A stretch of DNA of 64,000 nucleotides. Origin: Candidatus Latescibacterota bacterium (GTDB lineage: Bacteria > Latescibacterota > UBA2968). Location of the stretch: NCBI GenBank assembly GCA_965214925.1, contig OZ244028.1, positions 3,592,205 through 3,656,204 of the forward strand, in the 5' to 3' direction. Position numbers and translations under genes: made by a program. The notes below the pieces were generated by a model. That model saw nothing but the letters and a program-made list of their open reading frames with translations, ran no database searches and had not been told where the DNA came from. Shown piece by piece: positions 442 through 39,291 of this stretch (its first letter is position 1; each line of letters begins with the position of its first letter).

Positions 442-819
442 AAGGACCAGTCTTTTGAATACCAAACTTTTCGACCCGAAATTGATTAACAAACCCACTT
501 CTAACCGATATGCCTTCAAGTAATTTAATGTCTGTGCCATGTGTGCATCTTCCAATGCAGAGATAGCTTTCAATTCTACCAATACTTTTCCTTCGACCAC
601 AAAATCGGCTCTGCGCGTGCCAATGGGCTCTGACAATTCTTTGTAGAAAATGTGTTGCTCAATTTCACGCGCAAATGCCAACCCCGCCTGTGTCATCTCA
701 AACGCCAAGGCCCGCTGATAAATGACCTCTTGGAAGCCATTGCCCAAAAATTTATGCACTTCAAAGGCTGCCCCAATAATTTTTTCCGTTATCTCGCGAT
801 ATTTCAGACTGTTGCTCAT
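409..819 (-). CDS. GxxExxY-family protein (PD-(D/E)XK-like fold)
   Basis: Motif GNGFQEVIYQRAL is the GxxExxY signature. The probable start is the internal MSNSLKY at 819 rather than the upstream extension. Confidence 0.7.
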   Translation of the reverse strand: MSNSLKYREITEKIIGAAFEVHKFLGNGFQEVIYQRALAFEMTQAGLAFAREIEQHIFYKELSEPIGTRRADFVVEGKVLVELKAISALEDAHMAQTLNYLKAYRLEVGLLINFGSKSLVFKRLVLSQPKRRFDRR

Positions 820-842
820 TATCTCTTTTTTCCTCCCCTGAT

Positions 843-945
843 CGCGGATTGTCGCGGATGAAAGGATTGCGCGGATTAAACCCATTCCCTCTGCACGACC
901 CGTAACGTCTAATCCGCGCCATCTGTGTCATCCCCCTAATCCGCG
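843..945. promoter_or_regulatory. Cluster of five 8-bp CGCGGATT/AATCCGCG motifs, three forward and two inverted
   Basis: Forward copies at 843-850, 853-860 and 870-877; inverted copies at 911-918 and 938-945. The cluster lies in the upstream region of the GxxExxY gene and the 3' end of the methyltransferase gene. Related copies occur at 25887-25912. Confidence 0.3.
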
Positions 946-5555: not shown

Positions 5556-5556
5556 A

Positions 5557-7887: not shown

Positions 7888-7922
7888 CTTGCTCTCCCCC
7901 CTCAATGAGCAGTGTTTTGCCC

Positions 7923-9541: not shown

Positions 9542-10792
9542 TCAGATGTCAAATTTACGCAGGATGAGGACGGCGTTGTGACCGCCAAAGCCAAAGGAGT
9601 TGCTGATGGCGATTTCAACGGGCATTTCCCGCGCGTCATTGGGCACGTAATCGAGATCGCATTCTGGGTCGGGTGTTTCGTAATTGATGGTGGGCGGCAC
9701 GACATCGCGGTGAACCGCTAGGGCCGTCGCAATCGTTTCAATCGCGCCCGAAGCACCCAACAGATGTCCGGTCATGGATTTTGTCGAACTGACCGCGAGC
9801 TTTTTGGCGCGCCCGCCAAATACAGATTTGATCGCGGCTGTTTCTCCCGGATCGCCCACGGGCGTGGATGTGCCGTGCGCGTTGATATAAGACACGTCTT
9901 CCAAATTGACCTGGGCTTGGCGCAGCGCGCGGCGCATGGCGCGCGCGCCCCCCTCGCCGCCGGGCGCCATATCGGTAATGTGATACGCGTCGCCGGTATA
10001 ACCCGCGCCCACCACTTCGGCGTAGATCGTGGCACCGCGCTGTCTGGCGCGTTCGAGTTCTTCCAAAACGAGCCCGCCCGCGCCTTCGCCAATGACAAAT
10101 CCATCGCGGTCTGCATCAAAGGGCCTGCTGGCGCGCGCGGGCGCGTCGTTGCGCGTCGAAAGGGTTCGCGCGGAAGCAAATCCACCGACGGACATCGGGG
10201 TAATCGCGGCTTCGGCCCCGCCCGTGATCATGACATCGGCTTCGTCATCCCAAATTTCGCGGGCCGCATTGCCAATGGCATGGGCTGCCGACGCGCAGGC
10301 GGTGACCGTGGTGTAGTTGGGGCCTTTGGCGCCCAGGTAAATAGATACCTGACCAGCGGACATGTCCGCGATCATCATCGGCACAAAAAGCGGGCTGATG
10401 CGCCGGGGGCCCCCATCGCGGTAAGCATCGTACTGGTCTTCAAAGGTTTTAATGCCCCCAATGCCCGATCCAAAGACAACCCCGACGCGTTCGGCTCGTT
10501 CGGCGGCGAGGTCGAGACCCGCATTTTCAACAGCCTGAACAGACGCGGCAATGGCGTATTGCGTAAAGAGATCCATGCGACGCTGGCTTCGGCGATCCAT
10601 GCCGTAGCGCGCGGGATCAAAGTCTTTGACTTCCGCGGCAAATTGCACGCGGAAATTGGTGGCGTCAAATTTTGTGATGGGGCCAACACCTGTTCGTCCG
10701 TTGCACAAGGCGTCCCAATAGCGCGCTGTGGTATTGCCATTGGGCGCGAGTGTGCCCATGCCGGTGATGACCACTCTGCGTTGTTTGTTCAC
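9542..10792 (-). CDS. fabF: 3-oxoacyl-ACP synthase II
   Basis: VVITGMG..., active-site cysteine region and C-terminal GFGGHN, typical of KAS II. Confidence 0.9.
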   Translation of the reverse strand: MNKQRRVVITGMGTLAPNGNTTARYWDALCNGRTGVGPITKFDATNFRVQFAAEVKDFDPARYGMDRRSQRRMDLFTQYAIAASVQAVENAGLDLAAERAERVGVVFGSGIGGIKTFEDQYDAYRDGGPRRISPLFVPMMIADMSAGQVSIYLGAKGPNYTTVTACASAAHAIGNAAREIWDDEADVMITGGAEAAITPMSVGGFASARTLSTRNDAPARASRPFDADRDGFVIGEGAGGLVLEELERARQRGATIYAEVVGAGYTGDAYHITDMAPGGEGGARAMRRALRQAQVNLEDVSYINAHGTSTPVGDPGETAAIKSVFGGRAKKLAVSSTKSMTGHLLGASGAIETIATALAVHRDVVPPTINYETPDPECDLDYVPNDAREMPVEIAISNSFGFGGHNAVLILRKFDI

Positions 10793-10877
10793 AGAATGAC
10801 CTCCTGAAGGCTTGAGAGGTGTTCTTGCACCCGTTGATCAAGGGGCGAGAACCCTTCCTCAGCCCTCAGTTCCCAAA

Positions 10878-11117
10878 TTAAGTCAAGCGTTCGTCTAAAT
10901 ATTTGATGGCATCGCCGATTGTTTCGAGCTTCTCGGCGTCTTCATCGGGAATTTCCATGTCAAATTCTTCTTCAAAAGCCATGACCAGTTCGACCGTGTC
11001 GAGCGAGTCCGCGCCCAGATCGTCGATAAAATGCGCGTCGGAATTGACACTGTCGGCATCGACGCCGAGTTGATCGACGATCAGGTCAGTAACTTTTTGT
11101 TGAATATCATCGGCCAT
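10878..11117 (-). CDS. acpP: Acyl carrier protein
   Basis: [19 protein letters not shown] phosphopantetheine-attachment motif. Start at MADDIQQ. Confidence 0.9.
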
Positions 11118-11227
11118 GTGATCCTCCTTAAAAAATAAAACAGTACAGAGTAACGCGATAAAAATAGAAATACTCCACGGTTTGTGAAATGCGACTAATC
11201 GCAACATTGCTTCATCGAAAGCGATGT

Positions 11228-11974
11228 TTACATTGCCATGCCGCCATCGACGACAACGACCTGTCCGGTGATATAGGCCGCGTCGTCAGACGCGAGAAAC
11301 GCCACAGCGGCCGCGATATCTTCGGGGGTGCCGAGTTTGCCTAGTGGAATTTGCGCGATCAATTGTTCTCGCGTTTTTGCGTCGAGTTTGTCGGTCATGT
11401 CCGTTGGAATAAACCCGGGGGCAACCGCGTTGGCCGTAATATTGCGACTGCACAATTCTCTGGCGACCGATTTGGTCAGGCCAATCAGCCCGGATTTGGA
11501 CGCGGCGTAATTGATCTGCCCGGCATTGCCCATGAGGCCGACGACCGATGAAACATTGATGATGCGACCGGTTCGCGCTTTCATCATGGGGCGCGCAACG
11601 GCTTTGATGCAATGGTACGCACCTTTGAGATTGACGTCGAGGACGGCATCCCACTCCTCGTCTTTCATACGCATCAACAAATTGTCGCGCGCGATGCCCG
11701 CGTTGTTGACGAGGACATCCAGTTTACCCCATGTGGCGAGGACGGTTTTGACCAGTGTATCAACGGCTTCGGCATTGGACACATCGGTTTGTCGCGCGAT
11801 GGCCTCTCGACCTTCCGCGCGAATTTTTTCGGCCACGCCTTCTGCGGCTTCCGCGCTTTGACTAGCGCAAATGGCGACATGGGCTCCTTCGCGCGCAAGG
11901 CGCAGGGCAATGGCCTCGCCAATGCCGCGAGACCCGCCGGTTACAAGAGCTGTTTTGCCTGTGAGTCGGTTCAT
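11228..11974 (-). CDS. fabG: 3-oxoacyl-ACP reductase
   Basis: TGGSRGIG Rossmann motif and SDR YxxxK (YAASK); located in the fab cluster. Confidence 0.9.
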
Positions 11975-11986
11975 AAAATATAGGGG

Positions 11987-12943
11987 TTAGGAGCGCGCCC
12001 CGGGGTTGCCCATCACCGTTTTAATTTTGAGCTTTTCAATGGCTTCCCACGTGCCGGCTTCACGGACTGCAATATTCCGATCAATCCGGCGCATGAGGCC
12101 CTTGAGCACATTGCCGGCCCCCACTTCAAGGGCATGCGTCATGCCCTCTGCGATGAGGCATTGCATCGATTCGGTCCAGCGCACCGGTGAAATGACTTGC
12201 TCGATCAACAGGGCTTTGAGCAGGTCTGGATCGCGCGTGGGTTCAGCCGTGACATTGGGAATCACGGGGATTCGCGCGTGGGCAAAGGGCACATCCGCGA
12301 GGATGTCGGTCAGCGCGGTGGTAGCCGGCTGCATCAAGGCCGAGTGAAACGCGCCGCTTACGGGCAAGAGCACCGCGCGTTTGGCACCCAGTGCGCGGGC
12401 TTTTTCCAGCGCGCGCTCAACGGCCCTTTCCTCACCCGAGAGGACCACCTGCCCCGGGCAATTGAAATTGGCTGTTGTGACATGCCCCGAAGAACTGAGG
12501 TCATCGCATAGTTGAGTCATCACGTCGTCGTTGAGGCCGAGCACGGCAACCATCGCCCCTGGCCGAGTTTTGCCCGCCACTTGCATGGCGTGCCCGCGCA
12601 CACTGACGACCCGAAAGCCATCTTCCACGCCCATCACATCTGCCGCAACAAGCGCGGCGAGTTCTCCAACACTGTGCCCCGCCACGAGGTCGGGTTTCAG
12701 ATTTCGCTTTTTGAGCACTTCAAGCGCGGCAATGCTGTGCCCGAAAATTGCCGGTTGGGTGACCGCGGTCTGTTTGAGGGACTCGGCAGGGCCGTTGAAG
12801 CAAAATGATTTGATGTCAATGTCGAGCACATCGTCGGCGAGGTCAAAAATTTTGCGCGCTTCTGGTGCGGCCCTGTACAGGTCGTGCCCCATGCCGACAA
12901 ATTGGGCGCCTTGCCCTGGAAATAGGAATGCTTTTTTGCCCAT
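11987..12943 (-). CDS. fabD: Malonyl-CoA-ACP transacylase
   Basis: FPGQGAQ and GHSVGE active-site motifs. Confidence 0.9.
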   Translation of the reverse strand: MGKKAFLFPGQGAQFVGMGHDLYRAAPEARKIFDLADDVLDIDIKSFCFNGPAESLKQTAVTQPAIFGHSIAALEVLKKRNLKPDLVAGHSVGELAALVAADVMGVEDGFRVVSVRGHAMQVAGKTRPGAMVAVLGLNDDVMTQLCDDLSSSGHVTTANFNCPGQVVLSGEERAVERALEKARALGAKRAVLLPVSGAFHSALMQPATTALTDILADVPFAHARIPVIPNVTAEPTRDPDLLKALLIEQVISPVRWTESMQCLIAEGMTHALEVGAGNVLKGLMRRIDRNIAVREAGTWEAIEKLKIKTVMGNPGARS

Positions 12944-13969
12944 CTAATAAGCCCATGTTAGCAGGGCACTGCCCCAGGTATATCCCGCACCAGCACTGGC
13001 GAGCAACACATGGTCGCCGCGATGGATTCGGCCCTGTTCCGCGGCTTCAGACAAGCCAATCGGAATGGTGGCGGCCGAGGTGTTGGCATAGCGGTCGATA
13101 TTGAGCACCACGCGGTCTTTGGGTAAATCCGTGCGTTTCACACACGCGTCGATGATGCGCTGGTTCGCCTGATGCGGCACAAACAGCGCGATGTCTTTGC
13201 CGACGAGTCCGTTGCGTTCGAGAATCTGAGCGGAAACCTCGGCCATTTTGGGCACCGCAAATTTGAAAACCTCGCGCCCATCCTGATAAACATAGTGCAT
13301 TTTCCGATCAACGGTCTCGTGAGATGCCGGATGCAGGCTGCCGCCCGCGGGTTGCCGCAGGTATGCCACGCCGCTGCCATCACAAGAGAGGATAAAGTCC
13401 TTAAGCCCCAAGCCGGGTTCGCCGGGTTCGAGCAACACCGCGCCCGCGCCATCGCCAAAGAGCACGCAGATTTCGCGATTGGCGTAGTCTGTGATGCTGC
13501 TCATTTTGTCCGCGCCAATGACGACCACGCGCTTGTGCGCGCCCGTTTCAATAAATTGCGCGCCAACCACCAGCGCGTACAAAAAACCGCTGCACGCCGC
13601 CGATAGATCAAATGCCCATGCCTTTGTGGCGCCGATTGCGTTTTGCACCAGACAGGCGGTTGCTGGAAATAACATGTCGGGCGTGATGGTCGCAACAATG
13701 ATCAAGTCGATATCCCTGGCATCGAGTCCTTTGGTGTGCAGAATGGATTCCAGAGATTTTACGGCCATAAAAGATGTGCCCAATCCCTCGCTGAGAATGC
13801 GGCGTTCTTTGATGCCCGTGCGAGACGTGATCCACTCGTCAGATGTATCGACCATTTTTTCGAGGTCGGCATTGGTCAGCCGGTGTTCCGGAACATAGTG
13901 CCCAACCCCGGTGACGGCGGCTGTAAATGGTTTTTTCATAAGCAAAAAATTAAAAGCCGTCGGTTTCAA
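12944..13969 (-). CDS. fabH: 3-oxoacyl-ACP synthase III
   Basis: KAS III pattern (GTGHYVP, ACSGF, terminal TWGSALL). The start is uncertain: 13969 or MKKPF at 13939. The gene abuts rpmF with no plsX between them. Confidence 0.9.
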   Translation of the reverse strand: MKPTAFNFLLMKKPFTAAVTGVGHYVPEHRLTNADLEKMVDTSDEWITSRTGIKERRILSEGLGTSFMAVKSLESILHTKGLDARDIDLIIVATITPDMLFPATACLVQNAIGATKAWAFDLSAACSGFLYALVVGAQFIETGAHKRVVVIGADKMSSITDYANREICVLFGDGAGAVLLEPGEPGLGLKDFILSCDGSGVAYLRQPAGGSLHPASHETVDRKMHYVYQDGREVFKFAVPKMAEVSAQILERNGLVGKDIALFVPHQANQRIIDACVKRTDLPKDRVVLNIDRYANTSAATIPIGLSEAAEQGRIHRGDHVLLASAGAGYTWGSALLTWAY

Positions 13970-14132
13970 TCACTTCGCGGCCCTTGTAATACCCGCAATT
14001 GCCGCAGACCCGATGGGGTACTTTTTGCTGCCCGCAGTTGGGGCACTCGTTAAACGTGGGGTGACGCAACTTCCAATTGGCGCGCCGTTTACCCGTGCGA
14101 GAATTTGAACTTCGTCGTTTGGGATTGGCCAT
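13950..14132 (-). CDS. rpmF: 50S ribosomal protein L32
   Basis: MANPKRRSS...CPNCGQQKVPHRVCGNCGYY zinc-ribbon L32. Confidence 0.85.
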   Translation of the reverse strand: MANPKRRSSNSRTGKRRANWKLRHPTFNECPNCGQQKVPHRVCGNCGYYKGREVIETDGF

Positions 14133-14253
14133 GAGAAATTCCTTTTAAATTAACGCTTTGATTTTTGTTTTTTGCCAGACGCAAAACAAAGCCGCGAGTT
14201 TCCCTCGCCTTTTACCTGCCTGCCGTCAGGCAGGTCTGTGTCTATCCGTGTTC

Positions 14254-14772
14254 TTATGTGGTTGCTTCTTCTTTGAGCACTCGCAGGGCATCCCATCGCG
14301 GATCACGACCTGCTTCTCGTTTGTGTTCCAGCAGTTCGTGGGGGTCTTGCTCATAGCGTTCGCAGGGGCCGGAAGGCGACGCAGCGCAGGTTGGAATCAT
14401 GGGCAGTTCGAGCAAAATATAGTCTTTCACGTCATTGCCCAGGTCAATTTCGCCGGGTTCTTCATTGAGCCAGATCAGCGTGTCGTCGTCATCATCGCTC
14501 ATCGCATCCGGGCGACCTTTTTGAAAAACGAATGTGTATGAGACATCAATGGGAAATTCGATGGATTCCAGGCAGCGCGCGCAGTCTGAGCGCACCCGAC
14601 AGGTGGTTTGCCCTTTGGCCGAGAGCGACTCGCCAAATCTGCTCAGCACGAGGCGCGTGTTTATGGCACCTGCGAATCGGACGTCTTCATCGGCCATGTG
14701 CAGGTCGGCAGGCGTCTCTTCAAATGCAAATTCGGTTTCGCCTTCCTGTATATCTCTCAGGTCAATTTTCAC
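14254..14772 (-). CDS. yceD: YceD/DUF177 family protein, the usual upstream neighbour of rpmF
   Basis: Acidic ~170-aa protein with CxxC...C pattern in the conserved yceD-rpmF arrangement. GTG start at 14772. Confidence 0.75.
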   Translation of the reverse strand: MKIDLRDIQEGETEFAFEETPADLHMADEDVRFAGAINTRLVLSRFGESLSAKGQTTCRVRSDCARCLESIEFPIDVSYTFVFQKGRPDAMSDDDDDTLIWLNEEPGEIDLGNDVKDYILLELPMIPTCAASPSGPCERYEQDPHELLEHKREAGRDPRWDALRVLKEEATT

Positions 14773-14775
14773 GGT

Positions 14776-14806
14776 AGCTTTCAGTGGTCAGTGGTCAGCA
14801 CCCGCC
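14776..14806. repeat. Dispersed element, copy A: AGCTTTCAG-TGGTCAG-TGGTCAG-CACCCGCC
   Basis: Sits immediately 5' of the yceD start codon and over the ndk stop. Related copies at 25557-25585, 29614-29639 and 31874-31904. Confidence 0.6.
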
Positions 14807-15228
14807 CGAAGCGAGACGCCAGAATCCCGCGTTCCAAAAAAGAAGGCCACTTCTTTGCCCGCGTTTTCCGGTGAATCTGAGGCGTGTACCGCGTTGTTTT
14901 GAATGTCGGTGGCAAAGTCTTTGCGAATAGTGCCTTCCGCGGCGTCTGCGGGATTGGTGCTCCCAATGGTTTGGCGCAAAAACGCGACGGCATTGTCTCG
15001 GTCGAGCACCATGGGCACACAGGGGCCAGAGGTCATAAAATCGAGTAGGTCATGGTAAAAAGGCCGTTGGCGATGCACTGCATAGAACTCGGCGGCCTGT
15101 TCTCGCGTGAGGCGCACCATTCTCAGGTCTGCCACCCGAAAATTTTTTTCTTCCAGACGGCGAATGATTTCACCAATTGCGTTTTGTGCAACTGCATCGG
15201 GTTTGATGATGAGCAAGGTGCGTTCCAT
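14788..15228 (-). CDS. ndk: Nucleoside diphosphate kinase
   Basis: LLIIKPDAV, active-site region NAVHASDS and terminal EVAFFF. Confidence 0.9.
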   Translation of the reverse strand: MERTLLIIKPDAVAQNAIGEIIRRLEEKNFRVADLRMVRLTREQAAEFYAVHRQRPFYHDLLDFMTSGPCVPMVLDRDNAVAFLRQTIGSTNPADAAEGTIRKDFATDIQNNAVHASDSPENAGKEVAFFFGTRDSGVSLRAGADH

Positions 15229-15356: not shown

Positions 15357-15385
15357 TTGACACGAGTCCAATTGGAGACTTTAAT
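15357..15385 (+). promoter_or_regulatory. Putative sigma70-type promoter of the ether-lipid operon
   Basis: TTGACA (15357-15362), 17-bp spacer, TTTAAT (15380-15385), about 50 bp upstream of the FAR start. Confidence 0.3.
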
Positions 15386-15435
15386 TAGGGCACTTTTGGA
15401 AAGTGATTTTTTTTCTGCATTTTGGGGTTTTTGTT

Positions 15436-17052
15436 ATGAGCGTCGTTATTCCATTTTTGAATCACAAAGTTCTTTTTGTCACGGGTGCAACGGGTTTTTT
15501 GGGCAAGGGATTGGTGGAAAAGATCCTTCGCCATGTGCCGGATATTGGACGCATCTATCTCATGGTGCGCCCCCGAAGCCGAGGGGCAGGCAAGCCCGTG
15601 AGCACCGAAGACCGCCTTCAACGAGAGGTTTTGCAATCCAATGCCTTTGCGCGATTGCGCGCGGAACTCGGAGATCGATTTGACGCTGTGATGCGCGAAA
15701 AAGTCACGGCTGTGCCGAGTGACTTGACAGAAGACCGCCTCGGCATGGACGCCGAGACTTATGCGCGGTTGACCCGCGAAGTCGATATCGTGATCAACAG
15801 CGCAGCCACTGTGGTTTTTGACGAACCTCTGGATCTGGCCCTGGCTCAGAATACCCTCGGTACCATGCGCGTGGTCGAATTTGCCAAAGCGTGTCGCAAT
15901 GCCGTGCTCGTACACGTTTCAACGGCTTATGTCAATGGGCGGCAAAAGGGCGTGATTTCTGAAGACGCGCCCGTGCCCGATCACACTGTGGCACAGCAGA
16001 TGGGAGAGGGGCGCGCGCCCGATTACCATCTGGATTCGGAGATCGAAAGCATCCTGGCATATCGCCGCGAAGTCGAGGAGGCGTCGCGAAGCCCCGATCG
16101 ATTTGCCGAATTTACGCGTTTGCTCAACCGAAAAGACCGGGGCAAGCGCGTGACCGCGCATCGGCGGGAACACCAGATGGAGGCGTTGCGCCAACGCTGG
16201 ATCAGAGAGCGGATGGTGGCGCGCGGCACGCAGCGCGGGCGCGCGTTGGGCTGGCACGACAGTTATTCTTTTACCAAAGCCATGGGCGAGCAGATGATCG
16301 CCAAGACCCGGGGCAAGTTGCCGACTGTGATCGTCCGACCGTCAATTATCGAGAGCAGTTTGTCCGATCCCGAGCCCGGATGGATCGAGGGGCTCAAGGT
16401 GGCCGACCCGCTCATTGTACACTATGGCAAGGGGCGTTTGATGGATTTCCCCGCGCGCCCAGAAGCGATTTTAGACATTATTCCCGTGGATATAATTATC
16501 AATGCGATCATCGGTGTTTTGCCTTCCATCCATGCGGGGTCCAATTTGAAGGTTTATCACGTGACAACAGGTGCAAATAATCCGGTCACCATGGGCGAGG
16601 TCGCCCACTATGTGTACGAGTATTTTGTGAAAAACCCCATGCGAGATCGCAATGGCAACCCCATTGCGGTGGCGAAGTGGTCCTATCCGACGTTGTCCCA
16701 ATTCCGTCGAAAGTTGCGTTATCAATACCAGTTGCCACTCAAAATGATGCAGTGGGCCCTGAACCGGGTGCCACTGGTCGATGTTTCAAAACAGAAACGA
16801 CATTTGTCAATATTAGACGCCACATTGGAAAATACGCTGTCATTAACCAACATTTACGCGTCTTATATTTCTTTGGATTGCGTGTTTCAAAACGACCATA
16901 TCAATCGGCTGTTTGACGGCATGGATGCAGAAGATAAAGCAATTTTCAATTGCGATGTCTCGCGCATCAATTGGCCCGCATACATCAAAGAGATCCACGT
17001 TCCCGGCTTGCAACGCCACGTGCTCAAAACAGATGTGGCGAAAGGAAGTTGA
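15436..17052 (+). CDS. Fatty acyl-CoA reductase (alcohol-forming, FAR1-like; NAD_binding_4 plus FAR_C domains)
   Basis: TGATGFLGKGLVEKIL Rossmann motif, YVNG active-site region and RPSIIESSLSDPEPGWIEG, which mirrors eukaryotic FAR RPSIV..EPFPGWID. Confidence 0.8.
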   Translation: MSVVIPFLNHKVLFVTGATGFLGKGLVEKILRHVPDIGRIYLMVRPRSRGAGKPVSTEDRLQREVLQSNAFARLRAELGDRFDAVMREKVTAVPSDLTEDRLGMDAETYARLTREVDIVINSAATVVFDEPLDLALAQNTLGTMRVVEFAKACRNAVLVHVSTAYVNGRQKGVISEDAPVPDHTVAQQMGEGRAPDYHLDSEIESILAYRREVEEASRSPDRFAEFTRLLNRKDRGKRVTAHRREHQMEALRQRWIRERMVARGTQRGRALGWHDSYSFTKAMGEQMIAKTRGKLPTVIVRPSIIESSLSDPEPGWIEGLKVADPLIVHYGKGRLMDFPARPEAILDIIPVDIIINAIIGVLPSIHAGSNLKVYHVTTGANNPVTMGEVAHYVYEYFVKNPMRDRNGNPIAVAKWSYPTLSQFRRKLRYQYQLPLKMMQWALNRVPLVDVSKQKRHLSILDATLENTLSLTNIYASYISLDCVFQNDHINRLFDGMDAEDKAIFNCDVSRINWPAYIKEIHVPGLQRHVLKTDVAKGS

Positions 17053-17057
17053 TCGCT

Positions 17058-19004
17058 ATGCCGACACGCGACAAATTAGACCCCCGTCCCTTGCACGAAA
17101 CCCTGCTCGACAATACAGAGCAGATGTTGGCGATTTACGACCAATCGGTTCAGTACCTGCTCGAAGCCGTGCGACACGATGGCTATTTTGACGGTCTCGC
17201 GCCCGACGCGCTCGTGTGGCCGAAAAACCAGAGCGGGGCGATGGATCTCGAGGCGTTGCAATTTCGCGCTCAGATCGTGGATGCGATTTTTCGCGGCCTG
17301 CCCGAGATTCGCAATGTGCGTTTGTACGAGGCATATCGCCCGTTTGCGGATCTGCTTCCGCAGTATCACGCGGGCAGCCGGATGTATTTGCAACTCCGAC
17401 GGCAATTTGTCGCGCGCGGCAGAGGTGATGCCCGAGATTTTTTGAAATTGTATCAATCCCTGTATTTGAAGGCACTGGCCGGGGGCGAGTTGCACGCGCC
17501 CGAAGCCGTGGAAGAGGCCCTGGCGCAAGTGCATATTACGCAGGTGCCAATGTCGCATGCGCGGGCTGTTGCCGAGGCCCTTGGCGATGTTGCGGTGGAT
17601 GACGATGCGCACTGGGCAGAGGGGTATGTTTGCGAAATAGATGGCGCGAGCGTGGAAGGCGCGTTGCGCGATTTGTTGCAAGACGTGGCACAGCGCACGC
17701 TCAATCTGATTGCCGCGGGCGGTTTGCTGGCAACGCGATACAACTATCTGACAAATTTTGGCTGGTTTGGCGTCTCGGTGTGGAAGGTCATTGTCGATGC
17801 CGAGGTGGCCCTGGCGCAGGTGCGCGGTGCCTGCCCGGAGTCCGTTCTGAATTTGATCGATGAGGATGTGGCGCGCATGAAGGCATTGTTGATCGAATTT
17901 TTGCACGCCCATCAGGAGGATCCCACAAAGCTGCGCTCCAAGTTGTATTGGTATGGGCAAGAGTACAGCTATTTGACGCGGGATATGATCGATCTCTCCG
18001 TTAAACTCCTCGGCGATGTCAACGCGCAGATCAATCGCCTAGGACAAAAAATTTCGCGCTTGGAAATGCCCCCCTTGCTCGCGGATACCGCGCGCGGGCG
18101 ATTTTTGGAATATCCCAATGTGGGACGCAGGGGGCAATTTTCACGCGCGCAGCGGGGAATGCGTTTTGCCAGATGGATGGCGTTGTCGCTCAGGGTGGGA
18201 TGGAAAAAAAAGAAATTGTTGCACAAAGAAGCCGATCCCATTCGCCGCCGCGAAGCCGGGTGGCGCGCATGGCTCAATTGGGGGCGTCGCACGCTGGATA
18301 TTTTCGATATTCGGGTGCGCGTTTATATCGATCCCCATTTTGAAGCCGTTGCGCGGGATTTGAGGGCCGACAGAGAAAACCGCCGCCTTCTTTTTTTGCC
18401 AACGCATCAGAGTTTGTTTGACCATCCGGTTTTGTACGAAGTCTTGCAGTCCAAAGCATTTTGGGATGCGATGGGCTGGGAAAGGCCCGAACCGTGTGTG
18501 ATTTTGGCGCGCACGGGACTGGCGCGTTCGGGCATCAAAATTGGGTCGAAACAGATCACGCAATTTGGAATGTCGTCTGAGGCTTTTGACCACATTCTGG
18601 AAAATGTCGATGGCTATGTCATGCTCGAGCGGTCCCGTACCGCAGGGCATACGACGCAACGCGTGGCGCGGGCATTGACAGAGCGACCAGGCGTTATTTA
18701 TCCCATGGCGACGACCGCGGCGTTTGCCATTCAGCAATTTCCGCTTCAGCATGGGGTATTTGCACAATTGCCCCAGGATGTGGTGATTGTGCCGATTGCC
18801 TATCGCGGCCTTCACGCGCTGTGGCCCAAATGCCCAAAGGGAAATATCAATATCAACCCGGGGCAGGTCGATGTGTGGGTCTCGCCGCCCATGCTGGGCG
18901 AGACCGCGCTGCTGCCCAAAAGGCGGTCGTTGCGGATTCAGTCCGAAGCTGCCGCGCTATTTCAAGCCGTGCATATTGCCACATTGCTGAATCCGGAAGA
19001 ATGA
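17058..19004 (+). CDS. GNPAT/PlsB-like glycerol-phosphate/DHAP O-acyltransferase (HxxxxD acyltransferase with a ~420-aa N-terminal extension)
   Basis: LFLPTHQSLFDHPVLYEVL is acyltransferase block I (HX4D), close to mammalian DHAPAT LPTHRSYIDFL. ATG at 17058 lies 5 nt after the FAR stop. Confidence 0.65.
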   Translation: MPTRDKLDPRPLHETLLDNTEQMLAIYDQSVQYLLEAVRHDGYFDGLAPDALVWPKNQSGAMDLEALQFRAQIVDAIFRGLPEIRNVRLYEAYRPFADLLPQYHAGSRMYLQLRRQFVARGRGDARDFLKLYQSLYLKALAGGELHAPEAVEEALAQVHITQVPMSHARAVAEALGDVAVDDDAHWAEGYVCEIDGASVEGALRDLLQDVAQRTLNLIAAGGLLATRYNYLTNFGWFGVSVWKVIVDAEVALAQVRGACPESVLNLIDEDVARMKALLIEFLHAHQEDPTKLRSKLYWYGQEYSYLTRDMIDLSVKLLGDVNAQINRLGQKISRLEMPPLLADTARGRFLEYPNVGRRGQFSRAQRGMRFARWMALSLRVGWKKKKLLHKEADPIRRREAGWRAWLNWGRRTLDIFDIRVRVYIDPHFEAVARDLRADRENRRLLFLPTHQSLFDHPVLYEVLQSKAFWDAMGWERPEPCVILARTGLARSGIKIGSKQITQFGMSSEAFDHILENVDGYVMLERSRTAGHTTQRVARALTERPGVIYPMATTAAFAIQQFPLQHGVFAQLPQDVVIVPIAYRGLHALWPKCPKGNININPGQVDVWVSPPMLGETALLPKRRSLRIQSEAAALFQAVHIATLLNPEE

Positions 19005-19130
19005 TCGGAATCGCGCGCTGTGCGTGATGGCTCTGTCCAATAGCTTTAGCCGATGATTTCTCGTTGTGCGATTTTGATTTATGCACACCCCTCATTTAGA
19101 CACCTCGGCGTTTTATCCGTGAGGAACGCA

Positions 19131-20981
19131 ATGGATGAATTAACAGTTGTCGCATTTTTGCTGGCGTTGTGCTTGGTGCTGGTATTTCTGCTCGTTAGCA
19201 GGCGTCGCGCGTTTGCTCGTGAAGGCGATCTTTCAGATGGGTCAGACGGCGAGCGATTTGCACATAAGTGGGGGTATGCAGATACGCGATTTGAATTTGG
19301 CGATGACGGAAACGTGTGGATGACGGGCGCGCGGTACCTATTGTGTGGCTATCAGATGCCTCATTTTTTGCCCTTTGTCGAAGAGATGCTCGATCTGCCC
19401 ATCCGCCCTGAAGACATGGGACAAGAGGTCGAACACCGCGACTTGCCCAAACCCATAGCAAACGATGGATTTTTGACTGCGGTGCGCGAGGAGCTCGGGG
19501 ACGACCGAGTTTCTCAAGAAGATATCGAGCGTTTGGTGCATAGCCACGGTCAGTTGAGCGTGGATGAGGTATATCAAATTTTGTACCATCGCCCCCCCGA
19601 ACGCTTGGTGGATGTGGTGGTGTTTCCAGAGGGCGAGACAGATATTCAGAAAATCGTTCAGCTCGCAAACGACCACAACGCAGTGCTGGTGCCCTATGGC
19701 GGAGGGACGAATGTGAGTGGCGCGCTCGCCATTCCCACATCGGAAACGCGCATGGTCGCGTCGGTAGATATGCGGCGCATGAATCGCGTGGTGTGGTTGG
19801 ATGAAGAAAATTTCCAAGCATGTGTGGAAGCGGGCATGTCGGGCGTGCAATTGGAGAACGCCCTGAACGCGCGGGGGTACACCGCGGGACACGATCCAGA
19901 CAGCTTGGAGTTTTCGACCCTGGGCGGTTGGATTTCGACCCACGCCAGCGGCATGAAAAAGAATCGGTATGGCAATATTGAAGATATTGTGCTAGAAGCC
20001 ACGTTGGTGACGCCAACAGGTGAGGTCCAGACGCGACATGCAACGCCGCGCAATTCAACGGGTGTGCAACCCCGGTCATTTTTGTTTGGCAGCGAGGGCA
20101 ATTTGGGGATCATTACCCGGGCGATTATCAAGGTCCACAAACAACCCCGAGTGCAGCAATTTGGCTCGCTGGTCTTTCCGTCATTTGAACAGGGGGTGGA
20201 TTACCTCAAGGCACTGAGGCAGACCGGACAGATTCCGGCGAGTATTCGGCTGCTGAACAACACGGAATTTCGTTTTGGACAGGCATTGAAACCCGCGGCA
20301 AAAGGCGTCGCGAAGATCGAGCAAGAGATTCAGCGTTTCTTCCTGTTCAAGCTCAAGGGCTTTGATCTGAAGCAGGTGGTGGCGTGTACGATTGTGATGG
20401 AAGGAACAAAAGACGAGGTCAGGCAACAGGTAAAGACGATTTTCCGTTTGGCGAAAAAGTACGGCGGTATTTCGGGCGGGGCGAGCAATGGCAAGCGGGG
20501 GTATATGCTGACGTTTGGCATTGCGTATATCCGCGACTTTTTCAGTCAGTTTCACATTTTGGGCGAAACATTTGAAACCTCTGTGCCGTGGACACATGTC
20601 CACGAGGTCATCGGCGCGGTGAAAAAGAAGTTGTTTGCTTTGTGTGAAAAATGCGGGATACCGGGCAAGCCCTATTTGGCCTATCGCGTGACGCAGACCT
20701 ATCACACGGGCGTGTGCATTTATTTTACCATGGGCTTTTGCGGACAAGGGCTTGAAGATGCCGTTGGCGTTTTTCAAAAAATTGAGCGCGCGTTGCGCCA
20801 AGAGATCTTAAACCAGGGCGGCTCTTTGTCGCACCATCACGGCGTGGGCAAACTCCGCAGGGGATTCTTGCCGCAAATTCAAAGTGAAAACAGCATCGCG
20901 GTCTTGCGGCAGATGAAAAGGGCAATGGATCCAAACAATGTCTTTGCCATTGGCAACGGCGCGTTTGGAAGTGAAAGCTGA
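19131..20981 (+). CDS. Alkyldihydroxyacetonephosphate synthase (AGPS, FAD-linked oxidase) with an N-terminal transmembrane helix
   Basis: FAD-binding PCMH-type blocks (VVFPEGETDIQKIV, PYGGGTNVSG, GGWISTHASG) and C-terminal HHHGVGK. Start MDELTVVAFLL at 19131 follows a GAGGAA ribosome-binding site. Confidence 0.8.
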   Translation: MDELTVVAFLLALCLVLVFLLVSRRRAFAREGDLSDGSDGERFAHKWGYADTRFEFGDDGNVWMTGARYLLCGYQMPHFLPFVEEMLDLPIRPEDMGQEVEHRDLPKPIANDGFLTAVREELGDDRVSQEDIERLVHSHGQLSVDEVYQILYHRPPERLVDVVVFPEGETDIQKIVQLANDHNAVLVPYGGGTNVSGALAIPTSETRMVASVDMRRMNRVVWLDEENFQACVEAGMSGVQLENALNARGYTAGHDPDSLEFSTLGGWISTHASGMKKNRYGNIEDIVLEATLVTPTGEVQTRHATPRNSTGVQPRSFLFGSEGNLGIITRAIIKVHKQPRVQQFGSLVFPSFEQGVDYLKALRQTGQIPASIRLLNNTEFRFGQALKPAAKGVAKIEQEIQRFFLFKLKGFDLKQVVACTIVMEGTKDEVRQQVKTIFRLAKKYGGISGGASNGKRGYMLTFGIAYIRDFFSQFHILGETFETSVPWTHVHEVIGAVKKKLFALCEKCGIPGKPYLAYRVTQTYHTGVCIYFTMGFCGQGLEDAVGVFQKIERALRQEILNQGGSLSHHHGVGKLRRGFLPQIQSENSIAVLRQMKRAMDPNNVFAIGNGAFGSES

Positions 20982-21004: not shown

Positions 21005-21538
21005 ATGCGGGAAACGACCAATGCGATGAAGGTGCGGGAACTCATGCGGCATCTCGGCGCGGAGGCGAGAGGCGAAGGCCGTATTTACCTCGTCGGTGGG
21101 AGTTCCGCGGTGCTGCTGGGCTGGCGGATGACCACCGTGGATGTCGATCTCAAGATCGACCCAGAACCCGTCGGTGTCTTTGATGCGATTGCACGCGCCA
21201 AAAATATCTTGAACATAAATGTCGAACTGGCGGCTCCCGACGACTTCATCCCCGCCCTTCCCAACTGGCGCGAGCGCAGCGCGTTCATCGCCCGGTACGG
21301 ACAGATCGATTTTTTCCACTACGACTTCTACGCGCAAGCACTCGCGAAGATCGAGCGCGGCCATGAACAGGATCTGCGCGATGTCCAAGCGATGCACCGG
21401 GAACGATTGATTGAACCGACGCGTCTGACCGCGCTTTTCAGTGCCATAGAGCCGACTTTGGTGCGCTATCCCGCGATTGATGCCGCGTACTTCCACGAGA
21501 AGGTGCAAAAAGCGGTGATCGCGATGGGAAAACAATGA
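21005..21538 (+). CDS. Nucleotidyltransferase-fold protein (Pol-beta superfamily, minimal-NTase-like)
   Basis: VGGSSAV...VDVDL fits the hG[GS]-x(9-13)-DxD NTase signature. ATGA overlap with the next gene. Confidence 0.5.
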   Translation: MRETTNAMKVRELMRHLGAEARGEGRIYLVGGSSAVLLGWRMTTVDVDLKIDPEPVGVFDAIARAKNILNINVELAAPDDFIPALPNWRERSAFIARYGQIDFFHYDFYAQALAKIERGHEQDLRDVQAMHRERLIEPTRLTALFSAIEPTLVRYPAIDAAYFHEKVQKAVIAMGKQ

Positions 21539-22137
21539 CCAAAGTACCTGAAAATCTGCCCGGCGCGGATCTCGTTGCGTCGGGCATCGAAGCCTTGCAG
21601 CGCGGCGAGACCACGGTTGAGGCCTTGCTCGTCGCCATCGGTGCGCCGCGTTTGCGCGCGGCCGGACTGGAAATTCCCCACGCGCCGGGATTGCCCGACC
21701 AGCCAGAACTCGCCCTCTATACGGCCCTCGGTGCCATGTATCCCCGAGATACGCACTCGCGCTACAATGGTCTTATTCGCCGCCTCGTCAGCTTTGAGCG
21801 CGCACTCGAGCACTTGGTCGCACGGGGTGAGTCGCGCGCTTTGGACGCAACGGCTGACGAATTTCGTTTAACAGACGATCACCAGGAACCCCAACTGAAG
21901 AGGAACAACGACCTGACAGACTATCGGGACCGCATCACTATCGCACCGGGTAAACGCGGCGGAAAGCCTTGCATCCGCAACATGCGAATCACGGTTTACG
22001 ATGTGCTGGAATGGCTGGCTTCCGGCATGAGCGAAACCGAGATTCTGGCGGATTATCCGGAACTGACCCAAGAGGACATCCGAGCCTGCTTGGCTTTCGC
22101 CGCTGATCGAGAACGCCAACTGGTTGCACTGTCTTGA
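21535..22137 (+). CDS. DUF433 domain protein (antitoxin-like C-terminal domain) with an unidentified ~120-aa N-terminal region
   Basis: C-terminus ITIAPGKRGGKPCIRNMRITVYDVLEWLASGMSETEILADYPELTQEDIRACLAFA matches DUF433. Confidence 0.5.
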   Translation: MTKVPENLPGADLVASGIEALQRGETTVEALLVAIGAPRLRAAGLEIPHAPGLPDQPELALYTALGAMYPRDTHSRYNGLIRRLVSFERALEHLVARGESRALDATADEFRLTDDHQEPQLKRNNDLTDYRDRITIAPGKRGGKPCIRNMRITVYDVLEWLASGMSETEILADYPELTQEDIRACLAFAADRERQLVALS

Positions 22138-22528: not shown

Positions 22529-23365
22529 ATGTCAGCACATGCTTTGAAAGGCGCGATGTTTCGCGATAAAGTGGCGATCATTACGGGCGCGTCTTCGGGC
22601 CTGGGGGCCGCGCTGGCACTGGAACTGGCGAAACGAGGTACGCACTTAGCCCTGTTTGCGCGGCGCGAGGCAAAGCTCGCGGAGACAACCGAACGGTGTC
22701 GATCATGGGGTGTGTGCGCGCGCCCTGTGACAGGCGATGTCACACAGGCCGAGCATTGCGAACACTTGATCGACGCGGCGATAACAGAATTTGGTCAAAT
22801 AGATTATTTGATCGCCAATGCCGGGATCAGTATGTGGGCGCGATTTGACGAGGTGGAAGATCTGGGCGTGTTTCGGAAATTAATGGAGACAAATTATCTC
22901 GGTCTGGTCTATTGTGTGCATTCGGCATTGCCCTATCTGAAAGCTTCAAAGGGCATGCTGGTGGGCATTGCTTCTGTGCAGGGCAAAATTAGCGTGCCCC
23001 TGCACACGGGGTATGCCGCGTCAAAACACGCTGGGGTGGGTTTTTTGAACGCCCTGCGGATGGAAGTCGATGATGTACACATATTGACGGTCTTGCCGCA
23101 CTGGCTTCAGGGAACGAATTTGAGACAGAGCGCCTTTGGCAAAGATGGCGAAGCACTCGGCGCATCCTCACAGCGACACAATAAAGAGTCAATTTCCACA
23201 AAAAATTGTTGCAACGCTATTTTGAAAGCCATAATAAAACAAAAGCGCGAACTCGTGATCCCATGGAAACTCCGTACCCTGCCCTGGCTGCAACTGATCC
23301 ACCCCAAAATTGTCGAATGGCTGGTGAAGGACAAGATGAAGGATCAAGAGTCAAATGGCTGGTGA
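22529..23365 (+). CDS. Short-chain dehydrogenase/reductase (SDR)
   Basis: ITGASSGLG and YAASKHA. The 3' end carries a ~40-bp imperfect tandem duplication. Confidence 0.8.
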   Translation: MSAHALKGAMFRDKVAIITGASSGLGAALALELAKRGTHLALFARREAKLAETTERCRSWGVCARPVTGDVTQAEHCEHLIDAAITEFGQIDYLIANAGISMWARFDEVEDLGVFRKLMETNYLGLVYCVHSALPYLKASKGMLVGIASVQGKISVPLHTGYAASKHAGVGFLNALRMEVDDVHILTVLPHWLQGTNLRQSAFGKDGEALGASSQRHNKESISTKNCCNAILKAIIKQKRELVIPWKLRTLPWLQLIHPKIVEWLVKDKMKDQESNGW

Positions 23366-25823: not shown

Positions 25824-25954
25824 TCTGACCTTTCGCTTTTCATCCGCGTTCATCTGCATTTATCAGTGGTTGCTTTTCGCTTTTCATCCGCGCAATCCGC
25901 GTCATCTGCTTAATCCGTGATCCGCCTTTTATCTTTCGCGTCTTACCTCTCTAT

Positions 25955-26969
25955 GTCAACCCATTGGACAATCATTGCAAATCCCGTTTCGGGACGGGGC
26001 CGTGCAAAACGCATGGGGGAGTTGGTCGCGGATTTATTGCACAATCGAGGTGTAGGTGCTGACCTGATGGTGTCGGAGGCACCGGGCGAGTGTGAACGCC
26101 TCGCGCGAAAAGCATTGGCGCGGGGCGTGCGACAGGTTGCAGCGTGTGGCGGGGATGGCACAGTCCATGAAGTGGTCAACGGCCTCGCAAATTCAGACGC
26201 TGTTCTAGGGATTGTGCCCTGTGGCCGAGGGAATGATTTGGCGCGCGCATTGGATCTGCCCAAAGATGTGAACCGCGTGGTCAATACGCTGGTGCATGGC
26301 GCGGATCGCGCGATTGATCTGGGAAAAATGAACTGCTGTCGCAATGGGACACCGCTTGGCGATCGGTTTTTTGCGACCATTGCGAGTTTGGGATTCGACA
26401 CCGCAGTCGCACAAAGGACGCGGTCTCAGTCACCTCGCTCTCGAGCTTTGGGATGGGGCGGAACCGCATCTTATGGACTGGCGATTTTGCAAACGCTAGT
26501 GGGATATCGGTCTCCGATGGTGCGCTTGAGAGGAGATTTTGGTATTTTTGAAGGGCGTATTCTGCTGGTTGCAACGGCAAACGCGCCGTTTTATGGGAGC
26601 GGAATAAAAATTGCCCCTCACGCCGTGGTCGACGACGGAATGCTGGACGTGTGCATTGTGGCAGATGTGCCGCGCCGGACGGTTTTGCGACTCTTTTCAA
26701 GCGTGTATTCCGGCGCACACGTCGACCACCCTGCGGTGCATATCGCGCGAACCAAAACCTTGCAGATTGAAGCGGTGGATACCTGCGATAGCCGTTCAGC
26801 CGATGATCCCATGTGGGTATTTGCCGATGGCGAACCCATGTGTGAGATTCCTGCAAAAATCGAGGTCGTTCCCAACGCGCTGACTGTGAAAACAATGCGA
26901 ATGTACGACGCGAGACGCAAGAGGCGAGAGGCCCCCAAAACCCCTGCCTGTGCGCCGATGAACTGCTGA
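25955..26969 (+). CDS. Lipid kinase, diacylglycerol-kinase catalytic-domain family (YegS/BmrU-like)
   Basis: ANPVSGRG, ACGGDGTVHEV and GRGNDLAR blocks. The start could be 25917 or 25955. The stop TGA lies inside repeat copy 4. Confidence 0.75.
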
Positions 26970-39128: not shown

Positions 39129-39291
39129 GGCAATGATCAAAATCCTCTCGCTTCTCAGGCCGGGATGGCAATGTGAATGACATCTCGTTCAATGGGAAGT
39201 ATGGACTGGGCAAATGAGTCGCCGCGGTCGGCGAACTCGTTGGTATATTGAATAAACGCGGGGTGAACGTGACAGCACAATCGGGGGACAC

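Follow-up and report, generated by a model that had tools for sequence, protein, structure and literature searches.

A conserved operon of the Latescibacterota, an uncultured phylum, probably encodes an alkyl-dihydroxyacetonephosphate synthase (AGPS)-dependent (aerobic, 'peroxisomal-type') route to 1-O-alkyl glycerolipids, and is arranged divergently from fatty acid synthesis genes. The window, i.e. the entire stretch of 64,000 nucleotides that was analysed, thus upholds the core of an earlier, sequence-only reading, that of an AGPS-dependent ether-lipid operon beside fab genes, and supports that interpretation as a whole in part. In the proposed pathway, a fatty acyl reductase (FAR) would generate a fatty alcohol from acyl-CoA or acyl-ACP, an acyltransferase (AT2) would convert dihydroxyacetone phosphate (DHAP) to 1-acyl-DHAP, and AGPS, a membrane-anchored flavoenzyme, would exchange the acyl group for the alcohol to give 1-O-alkyl-DHAP. 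Keto reduction by an SDR would yield 1-O-alkyl-sn-glycerol-3-phosphate, which may enter ordinary phospholipid synthesis via a PlsC-type enzyme encoded elsewhere, while alkyl(acyl)glycerol is probably re-phosphorylated by a YegS-type lipid kinase. The genomic context suggests a membrane lipid as the product. Among those ORFs of the window that were scanned, none matched the PEDS1/CarF desaturase, and a plasmanyl (alkyl) lipid rather than a plasmalogen is therefore predicted.

Three co-directional ORFs on the forward strand, linked as previously claimed, form the core of the operon. These encode an alcohol-forming fatty acyl-CoA/ACP reductase (FAR; 15436-17052, +; 538 aa), AT2 (17058-19004, +; 648 aa) and an FAD-dependent AGPS with an N-terminal membrane anchor (19131-20981, +; 616 aa). 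The 5-nt spacing claimed between the stop and start codons of FAR and AT2 is exact (TGA at 17050-17052; ATG at 17058), and a Shine-Dalgarno-like run, GAAAGGAAG, is located within the 3' end of FAR; translational coupling of the two genes is predicted from this arrangement. The AGPS ORF at its longest begins at 19053, with the likely start being the ATG at 19131, six nt upstream of which GAGGAA occurs. A candidate sigma-70-like promoter (TTGACA-17 nt-TTTAAT; 15358..15386, +) could be read in the divergent ndk/FAR intergenic region, and was missed by a consensus scan because of the T at position 2 of its second hexamer.

FAR and AGPS could both be assigned to their families, retain the catalytic residues, and are linked across many species. 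The family identity of FAR is secure, with the domains NAD_binding_4 (PF07993; 1.6e-68, 231 bits) and C-terminal Sterile (PF03015; 1.4e-12, 48 bits) in the order typical of the family and above the Pfam cut-offs, a GxxGxxG-type nucleotide motif (TGATGFLGK), a catalytic YxxxK motif (YSFTK) and homology along its length to the solved FAR 7eoz (E 1e-89; two aligned stretches, residues 5-209 and 256-532). The block RPSIIESSLSDPEPGWIEG shares 13/19 residues with RPSVIESTWRDPFPGWMEG of PDB 7eoz and is thus a genuine FAR-family block. The family membership read from this block therefore stands, while its description as nearly identical to animal FAR1 was overstated, the comparison being with 7eoz only.

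The third protein has a VAO-type architecture, comprising FAD_binding_4 (PF01565; 9.6e-38) and FAD-oxidase_C (PF02913; 3.8e-36) domains. It matches guinea-pig AGPS (4bby) with an E-value of 1.1e-150, query residues 72-632 aligning with chain residues 95-653 (43 % identity over 557 aligned positions), and Dictyostelium AGPS (2uuu) at 1.3e-89, while the best non-AGPS match, a D-lactate dehydrogenase, reaches 7e-22 over query residues 143-402 only. The 4bby match starts at guinea-pig residue 95, upstream of the stretch reached by the D-lactate dehydrogenase matches, and its score against the NCBIfam GlcD model (154.7 bits) falls far short of the 567.9 required. In the alignment T309, R419, R515, Y578 and H615-617 (guinea-pig numbering) are kept, among which R419, R515, Y578 and H615-617 are the catalytic residues. 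Roles have been described for R352, R447 and Y508 of Dictyostelium AGPS (PMC3509576), the last being equivalent to guinea-pig Y578. The identification of this protein as an AGPS rather than a D-lactate/glycolate oxidase, on the basis of these E-values and the retained Arg/Tyr/His-His-His set, is secure, contrary to the outcome that would have refuted the sequence-only reading, and the formation of alkyl-DHAP from acyl-DHAP and fatty alcohol is predicted. Bacterial AGPS homologues start just upstream of the same hydrophobic N-terminal helix, so the claimed transmembrane helix can be considered real.

Conservation was assessed in 80 species-level loci, almost all from Latescibacterota, with ~22 kb covered per genome. 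FAR-AT2 occurs in 51/80 loci, together with AGPS in 43, additionally with the SDR in 37 and with the lipid kinase in 19, and AGPS was never observed without FAR among the 80 loci. The co-localisation of homologues in related genomes, proposed as a check in the sequence-only reading, is thus found, and dozens of species-level genomes, in which AT2 identity falls to as little as about 47 %, share the gene order, so that the arrangement is not due to chance. The label 'eukaryote-like' is weaker than was implied: the search bearing on it yielded more than 4,800 database homologues at E ≤ 1e-50, with the named matches among the best 120 of these all being bacterial MAGs and none bearing a eukaryote name. 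Agps and ElbD homologues in Latescibacterota have been reported in surveys (PMC11868695; bioRxiv 10.64898/2026.06.23.733905), the ElbD matches putatively corresponding to the FAR of the operon, and no description of the FAR-AT2-AGPS operon or of AT2 was found in the literature searched.

A classical SDR is encoded at the coordinates given previously (22529-23365, +; adh_short 5.5e-43; NCBIfam PRK06181 288 bits against a cut-off of 215). Its closest solved relatives, 11-beta-HSD1 and clavaldehyde dehydrogenase (about 1e-23), are uninformative as to DHRS7B/Ayr1 orthology. The SDR lies downstream of AGPS in 37/43 loci, within 300 nt in 25 of these (minimum 16 nt), and a Poribacteria-labelled contig without FAR and AT2 has an SDR of 56 % identity 24 nt beyond its AGPS gene. 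This direct succession in related genomes strengthens the earlier proposal of the SDR as the missing reductase, and its context makes it a candidate acyl/alkyl-DHAP reductase. The last, loosely attached gene of the module (25953..26969, +) encodes a lipid kinase of the YegS/Rv2252/BmrU (YegS/DgkB) family, with DAGK_cat (PF00781; 8.8e-32) and YegS_C (PF19279; 3.6e-37) domains and a TIGR00147 score of 163 bits against a cut-off of 118.65. The gene had been correctly recognised, with its start misplaced at 25955, the in-frame ATG being at 25953. Its suggested relevance to the module is in keeping with its occurrence downstream in 19 of the 37 loci with the four-gene set, directly after the SDR in loci L002/L030, L022, L028, L047 and L056, and this context points to an alkyl(acyl)glycerol as its putative substrate. 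In the window, a DUF6036/DUF433 pair separates AGPS from the SDR and a nucleotidyltransferase-helicase ORF separates the SDR from the kinase, and co-transcription of the SDR and kinase is therefore uncertain here.

AT2 comprises an all-helical N-terminal domain without detectable relatives (17058..18302, +; ~residues 1-415) and a C-terminal acyltransferase domain (18303..19004, +; ~residues 416-648) with the HX4D motif THQSLFD, contained within LFLPTHQSLFDHPVL (residues 445-459). All 38 homologues compared have His450, with either Asp or Glu at position 455, and the domain adopts the LPLAT alpha/beta core fold; sequence and structure together thus identify an acyltransferase fold with a conserved HX4D motif. 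Blocks II-IV line up in order with E. coli PlsC, in an hhalign alignment without significance (E 0.057). Conservation of block II is poor, its Arg being variable; in block III (IYPxGTT) the Glu and Arg of the canonical FPEGTR are replaced and Tyr548 and Thr552 are kept by all homologues, and block IV (VVIVPIA) includes an invariant Pro579. No match reached the Pfam, NCBIfam or PDB sequence thresholds, and a PDB profile search was likewise without a match. Against PF01553, AT2 attains an E-value of 0.12 (12.6 bits; cut-off 23), and the best member of its family 0.0013. The hhalign comparison with E. coli PlsB covered 31 columns around block I only (probability 3 %), and a profile search of 1.84 billion representative proteins (1.84e9) showed no HMMER-detectable relatives beyond AT2's own small family, whose members occur in about 131 species genomes of GTDB. 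In these comparisons AT2 did not specifically resemble GNPAT, GPAT1 or PlsB, and the label 'GNPAT-like' previously applied to it is unsupported; the block I motif by itself does not separate DHAP, G3P and lyso-PA acyltransferases.

The top structural match of AT2 is a lyso-PA acyltransferase, and its structure is no nearer to those of GPAT1/GNPAT-type enzymes than to those of other LPLATs. AT2 could be an AGPAT/PlsC-like sn-2 acyltransferase, which converts 1-O-alkyl-G3P and an acyl donor to 1-alkyl-2-acyl-G3P, with acyl-DHAP supplied by an enzyme encoded elsewhere. This is unlikely. The acceptor is not predictable from fold similarity inside the LPLAT/AGPAT superfamily. An sn-2 function would also leave the operon without DHAP acylation, an activity which to our knowledge bacteria normally lack, yet have it duplicate PlsC, which they normally possess. 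Furthermore, acyltransferases coupled to FAR, whether physically or genetically, are described as GNPAT/DHAP acyltransferases in every characterised system (FARAT; PMC13012113). The position of AT2 between FAR and AGPS, and the analogy with FARAT, suggest that it may be a DHAP acyltransferase.

The neighbouring ndk-yceD-rpmF-fabH-fabD-fabG-acpP-fabF cluster (9542..15228, −; Pfam assignments), followed by rnc on the same strand, is divergent from FAR and lacks plsX, in agreement with the earlier description; rpmF (13950-14132, −) abuts fabH, leaving no plsX in the position where it is usually found. In 33 related loci a fab cluster likewise lies divergently upstream and lacks plsX, rpmF and fabH being 23-218 nt apart in each. 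Along with the occurrence of the AT2 family in so many species, and a monophyletic clade of 28 species with a well-conserved, apparently monocistronic AT2 and no FAR or AGPS within 10 kb, this would agree with AT2 being the general sn-1 glycerolipid acyltransferase of the phylum, acting on G3P and/or DHAP in place of PlsB or PlsX/PlsY, with the ether-lipid genes merely adjoining it. AT2 is evidently not obligately tied to AGPS, given this clade. However, the absence of plsX pertains to the rpmF-fabH slot within the ~22 kb covered per genome, and the tight FAR-AT2 spacing (median tblastn gap of 72 nt; 51 loci) argues for a dedicated partnership. Such a general function, which overlaps with the AGPS-dependent route if the acceptor is DHAP, is considered distinctly unlikely. 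More specifically, AT2 might represent an unrecognised class of glycerolipid sn-1 acyltransferase, providing the main entry to the membrane lipids of the Latescibacterota via acyl-DHAP and replacing PlsB or PlsX/PlsY, a proposal that is speculative and rather improbable. The basis for such a class is the new 415-residue helical domain and the highly diverged LPLAT core. If AT2 were the main sn-1 entry, ether and ester phospholipids would share a single pool of acyl-DHAP as their branch point, as they do in the acyl-DHAP pathway of eukaryotes, and the clade without AGPS would retain AT2 solely for ester lipids. This would account for both the stand-alone AT2 clade and the fab operon consistently lacking plsX.

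Instead of membrane ether phospholipids, the cluster could also yield neutral lipids for storage or the cell surface (fatty alcohols, wax esters, alkyl-diacylglycerols), given that FAR enzymes supply wax-ester synthesis too (PMC11948995). De novo ether phospholipid synthesis, moreover, needs no lipid kinase. However, AT2 has the LPLAT fold, from which that of the WS/DGAT wax synthases presumably differs, while AGPS with intact catalytic residues and the conserved adjoining SDR fit the alkyl-DHAP route only, and the divergent fab operon linkage in 33 species suggests membrane lipid supply. Neutral lipids are thus a highly improbable product.

Sediments, hot springs and sponges commonly contain non-isoprenoid 1-O-alkylglycerol lipids, for which the bacterial producers are poorly constrained. 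The AGPS-dependent operon provides a concrete four-to-five-gene candidate module for these lipids in a phylum without cultured members, and takes the aerobic AGPS route, in the form of a conserved operon, outside the myxobacteria. It also includes a bacterial SDR that is a candidate for alkyl-DHAP reduction, kept beside AGPS in contigs of two assigned phyla. As the AT2 family falls under every curated threshold, it is missed by domain annotation and BLAST-style surveys, so that a survey restricted to GNPAT or ElbD would wrongly assess how complete the pathway is. The occurrence in bacteria of a split FAR and acyltransferase, beside the fused FARAT proposed as ancestral in eukaryotes (PMC13012113), is also relevant to how the eukaryotic pathway arose.

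AT2 differs from PlsC/AGPAT enzymes, sharing 13 % identity with Thermotoga maritima PlsC (PDB 5kym) and scoring 12.6 rather than the required 23 bits for PF01553, in its YPxGTT rather than FPEGTR block III, its large additional N-terminal helical domain and a genomic context that points to another acceptor (DHAP). As with ElbD of the M. xanthus elbA-E system, reductase and acyltransferase functions are combined for bacterial alkyl-glycerol lipids; in contrast to ElbD, neither an acyl-CoA synthetase nor a carrier-protein domain was observed here, FAR stands alone with a C-terminal Sterile domain, and the ether bond would arise from the predicted action of AGPS and not from the elb route. The proposed chemistry and the FAR, AGPS and SDR classes are those of the eukaryotic peroxisomal pathway (FAR1/2, GNPAT, AGPS and DHRS7B/PexRAP), which differs in that the operon described here has no peroxisome or PTS signal associated with it, an AGPS with an N-terminal transmembrane anchor, an acyltransferase that is not a sequence-detectable GNPAT homologue, genes organised in an operon, and no PEDS1 match in the scanned ORFs. 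The MXAN_1676-MXAN_1675-MXAN_1674 operon of M. xanthus encodes AGPS and a FARAT (MXAN_1675), in which FAR is fused to a GNPAT/AGPAT-type acyltransferase (PMC13012113). Bacterial AGPS is genetically supported, since deletion of its gene in M. xanthus blocks ether-lipid production via the AGPS pathway (PMC13012113, Fig. 1 legend). Both bacterial operons thus include AGPS, FAR and an acyltransferase, with FAR ahead of the acyltransferase, whereas in the Latescibacterota the latter two are separate genes, FAR-AT-AGPS replaces the order AGPS-FARAT, AT2 belongs to an orphan family whose N-domain of 415 residues is helical and in which no PF01553/GNPAT domain is recognisable, and the cluster includes a conserved SDR and lipid kinase and a divergent link to the fab operon. 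The FAR-then-acyltransferase order is that of the domains in the fused FARAT of M. xanthus and most eukaryotes (PMC13012113), which the coupling of FAR and AT2 in the window mirrors.

Three plus-strand genes, as recognised in the sequence-only reading, are found at 15.4–21.0 kb, and encode a fatty acyl-CoA reductase (FAR; 15436–17052, 538 amino acids), a protein of 648 amino acids with a predicted acyltransferase domain (AT2; 17058–19004) and an alkyl-DHAP synthase (AGPS; 19131–20981, 616 amino acids). The AT2 start lies 5 nt past the FAR stop codon (TGA, 17050–17052) and a ribosome-binding-like run, GAAAGGAAG, is located ahead of it within the 3' end of the FAR gene, which fits translational coupling. 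The ATG at 19131 was preferred as the AGPS start over that at 19053, where the ORF listing begins, because GAGGAA occurs 6 nt 5' of the former and homologues start just before the same hydrophobic helix. A TTGACA/TTTAAT site read by hand was missed by the consensus promoter scan of the window, where promoter and terminator counts were no higher than in shuffles. Pfam comparison of the first protein identified an NAD_binding_4 domain (1.6e-68) and, C-terminal to it, the 'Sterile' domain specific to FARs (1.4e-12), while the solved fatty acyl-CoA reductase 7eoz matches along its length in two stretches (E 1e-89). Both the nucleotide motif TGATGFLGK and the catalytic motif YSFTK are present, and by its sequence this protein is a FAR. 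The block taken earlier to be nearly identical to animal FAR1 is instead a family signature, with 13/19 residues identical to RPSVIESTWRDPFPGWMEG of 7eoz.

The best phmmer matches of the third protein among all PDB sequences were the AGPS enzymes of guinea pig (1.1e-150) and Dictyostelium (1.3e-89), followed by a D-lactate dehydrogenase (7e-22) aligned over the FAD domain only. Furthermore, the NCBIfam glycolate oxidase GlcD model fell far under its cut-off. Together with the PDB ranking this rules out a D-lactate or glycolate oxidase, and the question of whether the protein groups with these oxidases or with AGPS is settled for the latter. Over 557 aligned positions it shares 43 % identity with the guinea-pig enzyme, with Thr309, Arg419, Arg515, Tyr578 and His615–617 all retained. 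The equivalents of residues kept here include R352, R447 and Y508 of Dictyostelium, found important by mutagenesis (PMC3509576). The third gene can thus be assigned as AGPS with reference to these alignments. A hydrophobic N-terminal helix is common to AGPS homologues in metagenome-assembled genomes (MAGs) labelled Latescibacterota, Poribacteria and Gammaproteobacteria; these proteins may therefore be anchored in the membrane, whereas the eukaryotic enzyme carries a peroxisomal targeting signal. More than 4,800 AGPS homologues (E ≤ 1e-50) occur in public data, many of them labelled alkyl-DHAP synthase by JGI. One protein of 1060 amino acids (P0221), which shares 65 % identity with the AGPS of the window, contains aminotransferase/beta-eliminating-lyase Pfam domains as well; it derives from a 5.8-kb metagenome contig and is a product of gene fusion or else an artefact of gene calling.

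AT2 has no Pfam or NCBIfam match at E ≤ 0.01 and no match in the PDB, either by phmmer or with a 38-sequence profile, and its named close homologues are all annotated as 'hypothetical protein', with the exception of one JGI label. When compared one by one at relaxed thresholds, 21/38 family members touched PF01553 (Acyltransferase), all sub-threshold (best E 0.0013), with the window AT2 scoring 12.6 bits (cut-off 23) over residues 439–582. When 1.84 billion cluster representatives were searched with an HMMER profile and no filters, only 66 matches were obtained, about seven full-length and the rest fragments of the same family, with no sequence bridge to known acyltransferase families among them. 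Across the family alignment the HX4D motif has His450 without exception, and only Asp or Glu at position 455. The hhalign alignment with E. coli PlsC is non-significant alone, yet blocks I (PTHQSLFD in AT2, ANHQNNYD in PlsC), III (IYPMATT, MFPEGTR) and IV (VVIVPIA, VPIIPVC) are in register. The condition that the sequence-only reading had set for its own refutation, a lack of blocks II–IV on alignment, thus did not refute it, and the acyltransferase core appears complete. With the family alignment as input, AlphaFold2 gave a confident model (pLDDT 86, pTM 0.90) that comprises an almost entirely helical region (residues 1 to ~415) and an alpha/beta region (418–648). Foldseek returned probabilities of 0.99–1.00 for PlsC, squash GPAT and tafazzin only, in agreement with another fold comparison, in which the remaining matches were generic helical bundles on the N-domain. 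It is thus by predicted structure, and not by sequence methods, that AT2 is classed as a probable acyltransferase. The label 'GNPAT-like' is not retained, as the model is nearer to PlsC than to GPAT1, E. coli PlsB aligns by hhalign around block I only and the canonical Glu and Arg of block III are lost. A cryptic FAR has been reported for kinetoplastid GNPAT (PMC13012113); one of this kind was rejected for the AT2 N-domain, which in the model consists of helices throughout, lacks a Rossmann sheet and matches no fold specifically.

With one genome scanned per GTDB species, 131 loci encoding AT2 relatives were identified, of which the best 80 were retained for counts by tblastn of the window proteins. 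Almost all of these 80 loci are labelled Latescibacterota, with a few Gemmatimonadota, Handelsmanbacteria and Eisenbacteria and one Gammaproteobacteria, and the closest relatives (82–86 % AT2 identity) are all labelled Latescibacterota. Among the best 80 of 131, FAR is directly 5' of AT2 in 51/80 loci, FAR-AT2-AGPS occurs in 43/80, this trio with a short-chain dehydrogenase/reductase (SDR; 22529–23365, plus strand, in the window) in 37/80, and all of these with a YegS-type lipid kinase (25953–26969, plus strand) in 19/80, while AGPS without FAR was found in none. For example, on an 8.08-Mb chromosome encoding an AT2 with 52 % identity the five genes are contiguous and divergent from the same fab cluster as in the window. 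There, ndk, yceD, rpmF, fabH, fabD, fabG, acpP, fabF and rnc lie upstream of FAR on the opposite strand, and plsX is missing from its usual slot, as had been noted, because rpmF (13950–14132) abuts fabH (12944–13969). A divergent fab cluster occurs in 33 related loci, and the rpmF-fabH gap of 23–218 nt in 33/33 indicates that plsX is consistently absent from its canonical position there. In loci L018, L026, L035, L050 (labelled Eisenbacteria) and L055 (labelled Gammaproteobacteria, on a 1.99-Mb chromosome), FAR-AT2 is present and AGPS is absent for at least 5 kb downstream, which could be due to loss of AGPS, to insertions of larger size, or to copies that were transferred or wrongly labelled.

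The SDR gene starts 16–30 nt past AGPS in many close relatives, and on a contig with a Poribacteria-labelled AGPS, with no FAR or AT2 nearby, an SDR with 56 % identity follows AGPS after 24 nt. From the SDR-after-AGPS counts and this contig, the AGPS-SDR pair is the most widely conserved unit. In mammals acyl/alkyl-DHAP reduction is performed by an SDR, DHRS7B (PMC13200781), and there is good contextual evidence for the window SDR as a candidate acyl/alkyl-DHAP reductase. Given the short spacing in relatives, the 1.5-kb pair of plus-strand genes between AGPS and SDR, encoding a DUF6036 nucleotidyltransferase (21005–21538) and a DUF433 protein (21535–22137) and overlapping by 4 nt in the manner of a toxin-antitoxin pair, is a local insertion, and the junction seems to accept small insertions. 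Similarly, more distant relatives have SDR and kinase side by side, so that the intervening ORF (23470–25365, plus strand, 631 amino acids) looks like a local insertion. It joins an MntA-like nucleotidyltransferase N-terminus to the C-terminal half of a SNF2/DrmD-like (DISARM) helicase and has the appearance of a defence gene that was truncated or recombined. Elsewhere in the window, a defence-island-like block on the minus strand (409–7905) encodes a PD-(D/E)XK nuclease (409–885), an Eco57I/TaqI_C-type methyltransferase of 1233 amino acids (928–4629) and a PLD-SNF2 helicase apparently split in two ORFs (5557–7905 and 4599–5555, the latter starting mid-Helicase_C), and is possibly a DISARM-like system in which the helicase is frameshifted. 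A XerC/D-type tyrosine recombinase gene (38241–39140, minus strand) adjoins topA. In the window ORFs that were compared with Pfam, neither PEDS1/CarF nor a further glycerolipid gene was detected.

In the proposed pathway FAR, an enzyme of established identity like AGPS, would provide the fatty alcohol, AT2 would make acyl-DHAP and AGPS would exchange the acyl for the alkyl group. The SDR would then reduce the product to 1-O-alkyl-G3P, a PlsC encoded elsewhere would acylate sn-2, and the kinase would salvage alkyl(acyl)glycerol; for AT2, SDR and kinase these acceptors are the ones we infer. To our knowledge, a DHAP acyltransferase is ordinarily absent from bacteria. The need of the pathway for one, the tight coupling of AT2 to FAR and the parallel with FARAT, in which FAR and acyltransferase are fused in M. 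xanthus (MXAN_1675) and most eukaryotes (PMC13012113), argue for AT2 as a putative DHAP acyltransferase. The main alternative, that AT2 is an sn-2 acyltransferase acting on 1-alkyl-G3P, would suit its predicted PlsC-like fold, but the first committed step of the pathway would then be missing. DHAP acylation is the preferred reading for AT2.

Among the best 80 AT2 loci, 28 or 29 encode AT2 without FAR or AGPS within 10 kb, and the 28 stand-alone proteins included in the neighbour-joining tree form one monophyletic clade there (L048–L049, L052, L057–L060, L062–L082; for example L086:6001–7941). They are well conserved, and in three loci inspected the gene looks monocistronic. Its neighbours there are genes for a UvrD-type helicase and PhyH-family proteins, and no partner from lipid synthesis is conserved, although one locus has a GDPD-family gene ~4 kb away. 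A PhyH-family dioxygenase is also encoded at the end of the window (63073–63864, minus strand). Retention of AT2 in this clade indicates that it is useful without a linked AGPS, and would be compatible with a wider function as sn-1 acyltransferase.

The AGPS/FARAT operon of M. xanthus has been described, with genetic evidence for its AGPS (PMC13012113). A BLAST survey of Black Sea Latescibacterota MAGs found homologues of Agps in 67/92 and of ElbD in 50/92 (PMC11868695), and both have been reported in sponge-associated Latescibacterota, the phylum being called a new candidate ether-lipid producer (2026 preprint, bioRxiv 10.64898/2026.06.23.733905). No description of the FAR-AT2-AGPS-SDR(-kinase) operon, its fab linkage or the AT2 family was found in the literature searched. 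The earlier observation of a eukaryote-like ether-lipid operon is confirmed and its interpretation largely right, with 'eukaryote-like', as well as 'GNPAT-like', in need of correction. The pathway itself is known and the operon is a variant arrangement of it, the most original element of which is AT2, a predicted orphan acyltransferase family recognisable by fold alone.
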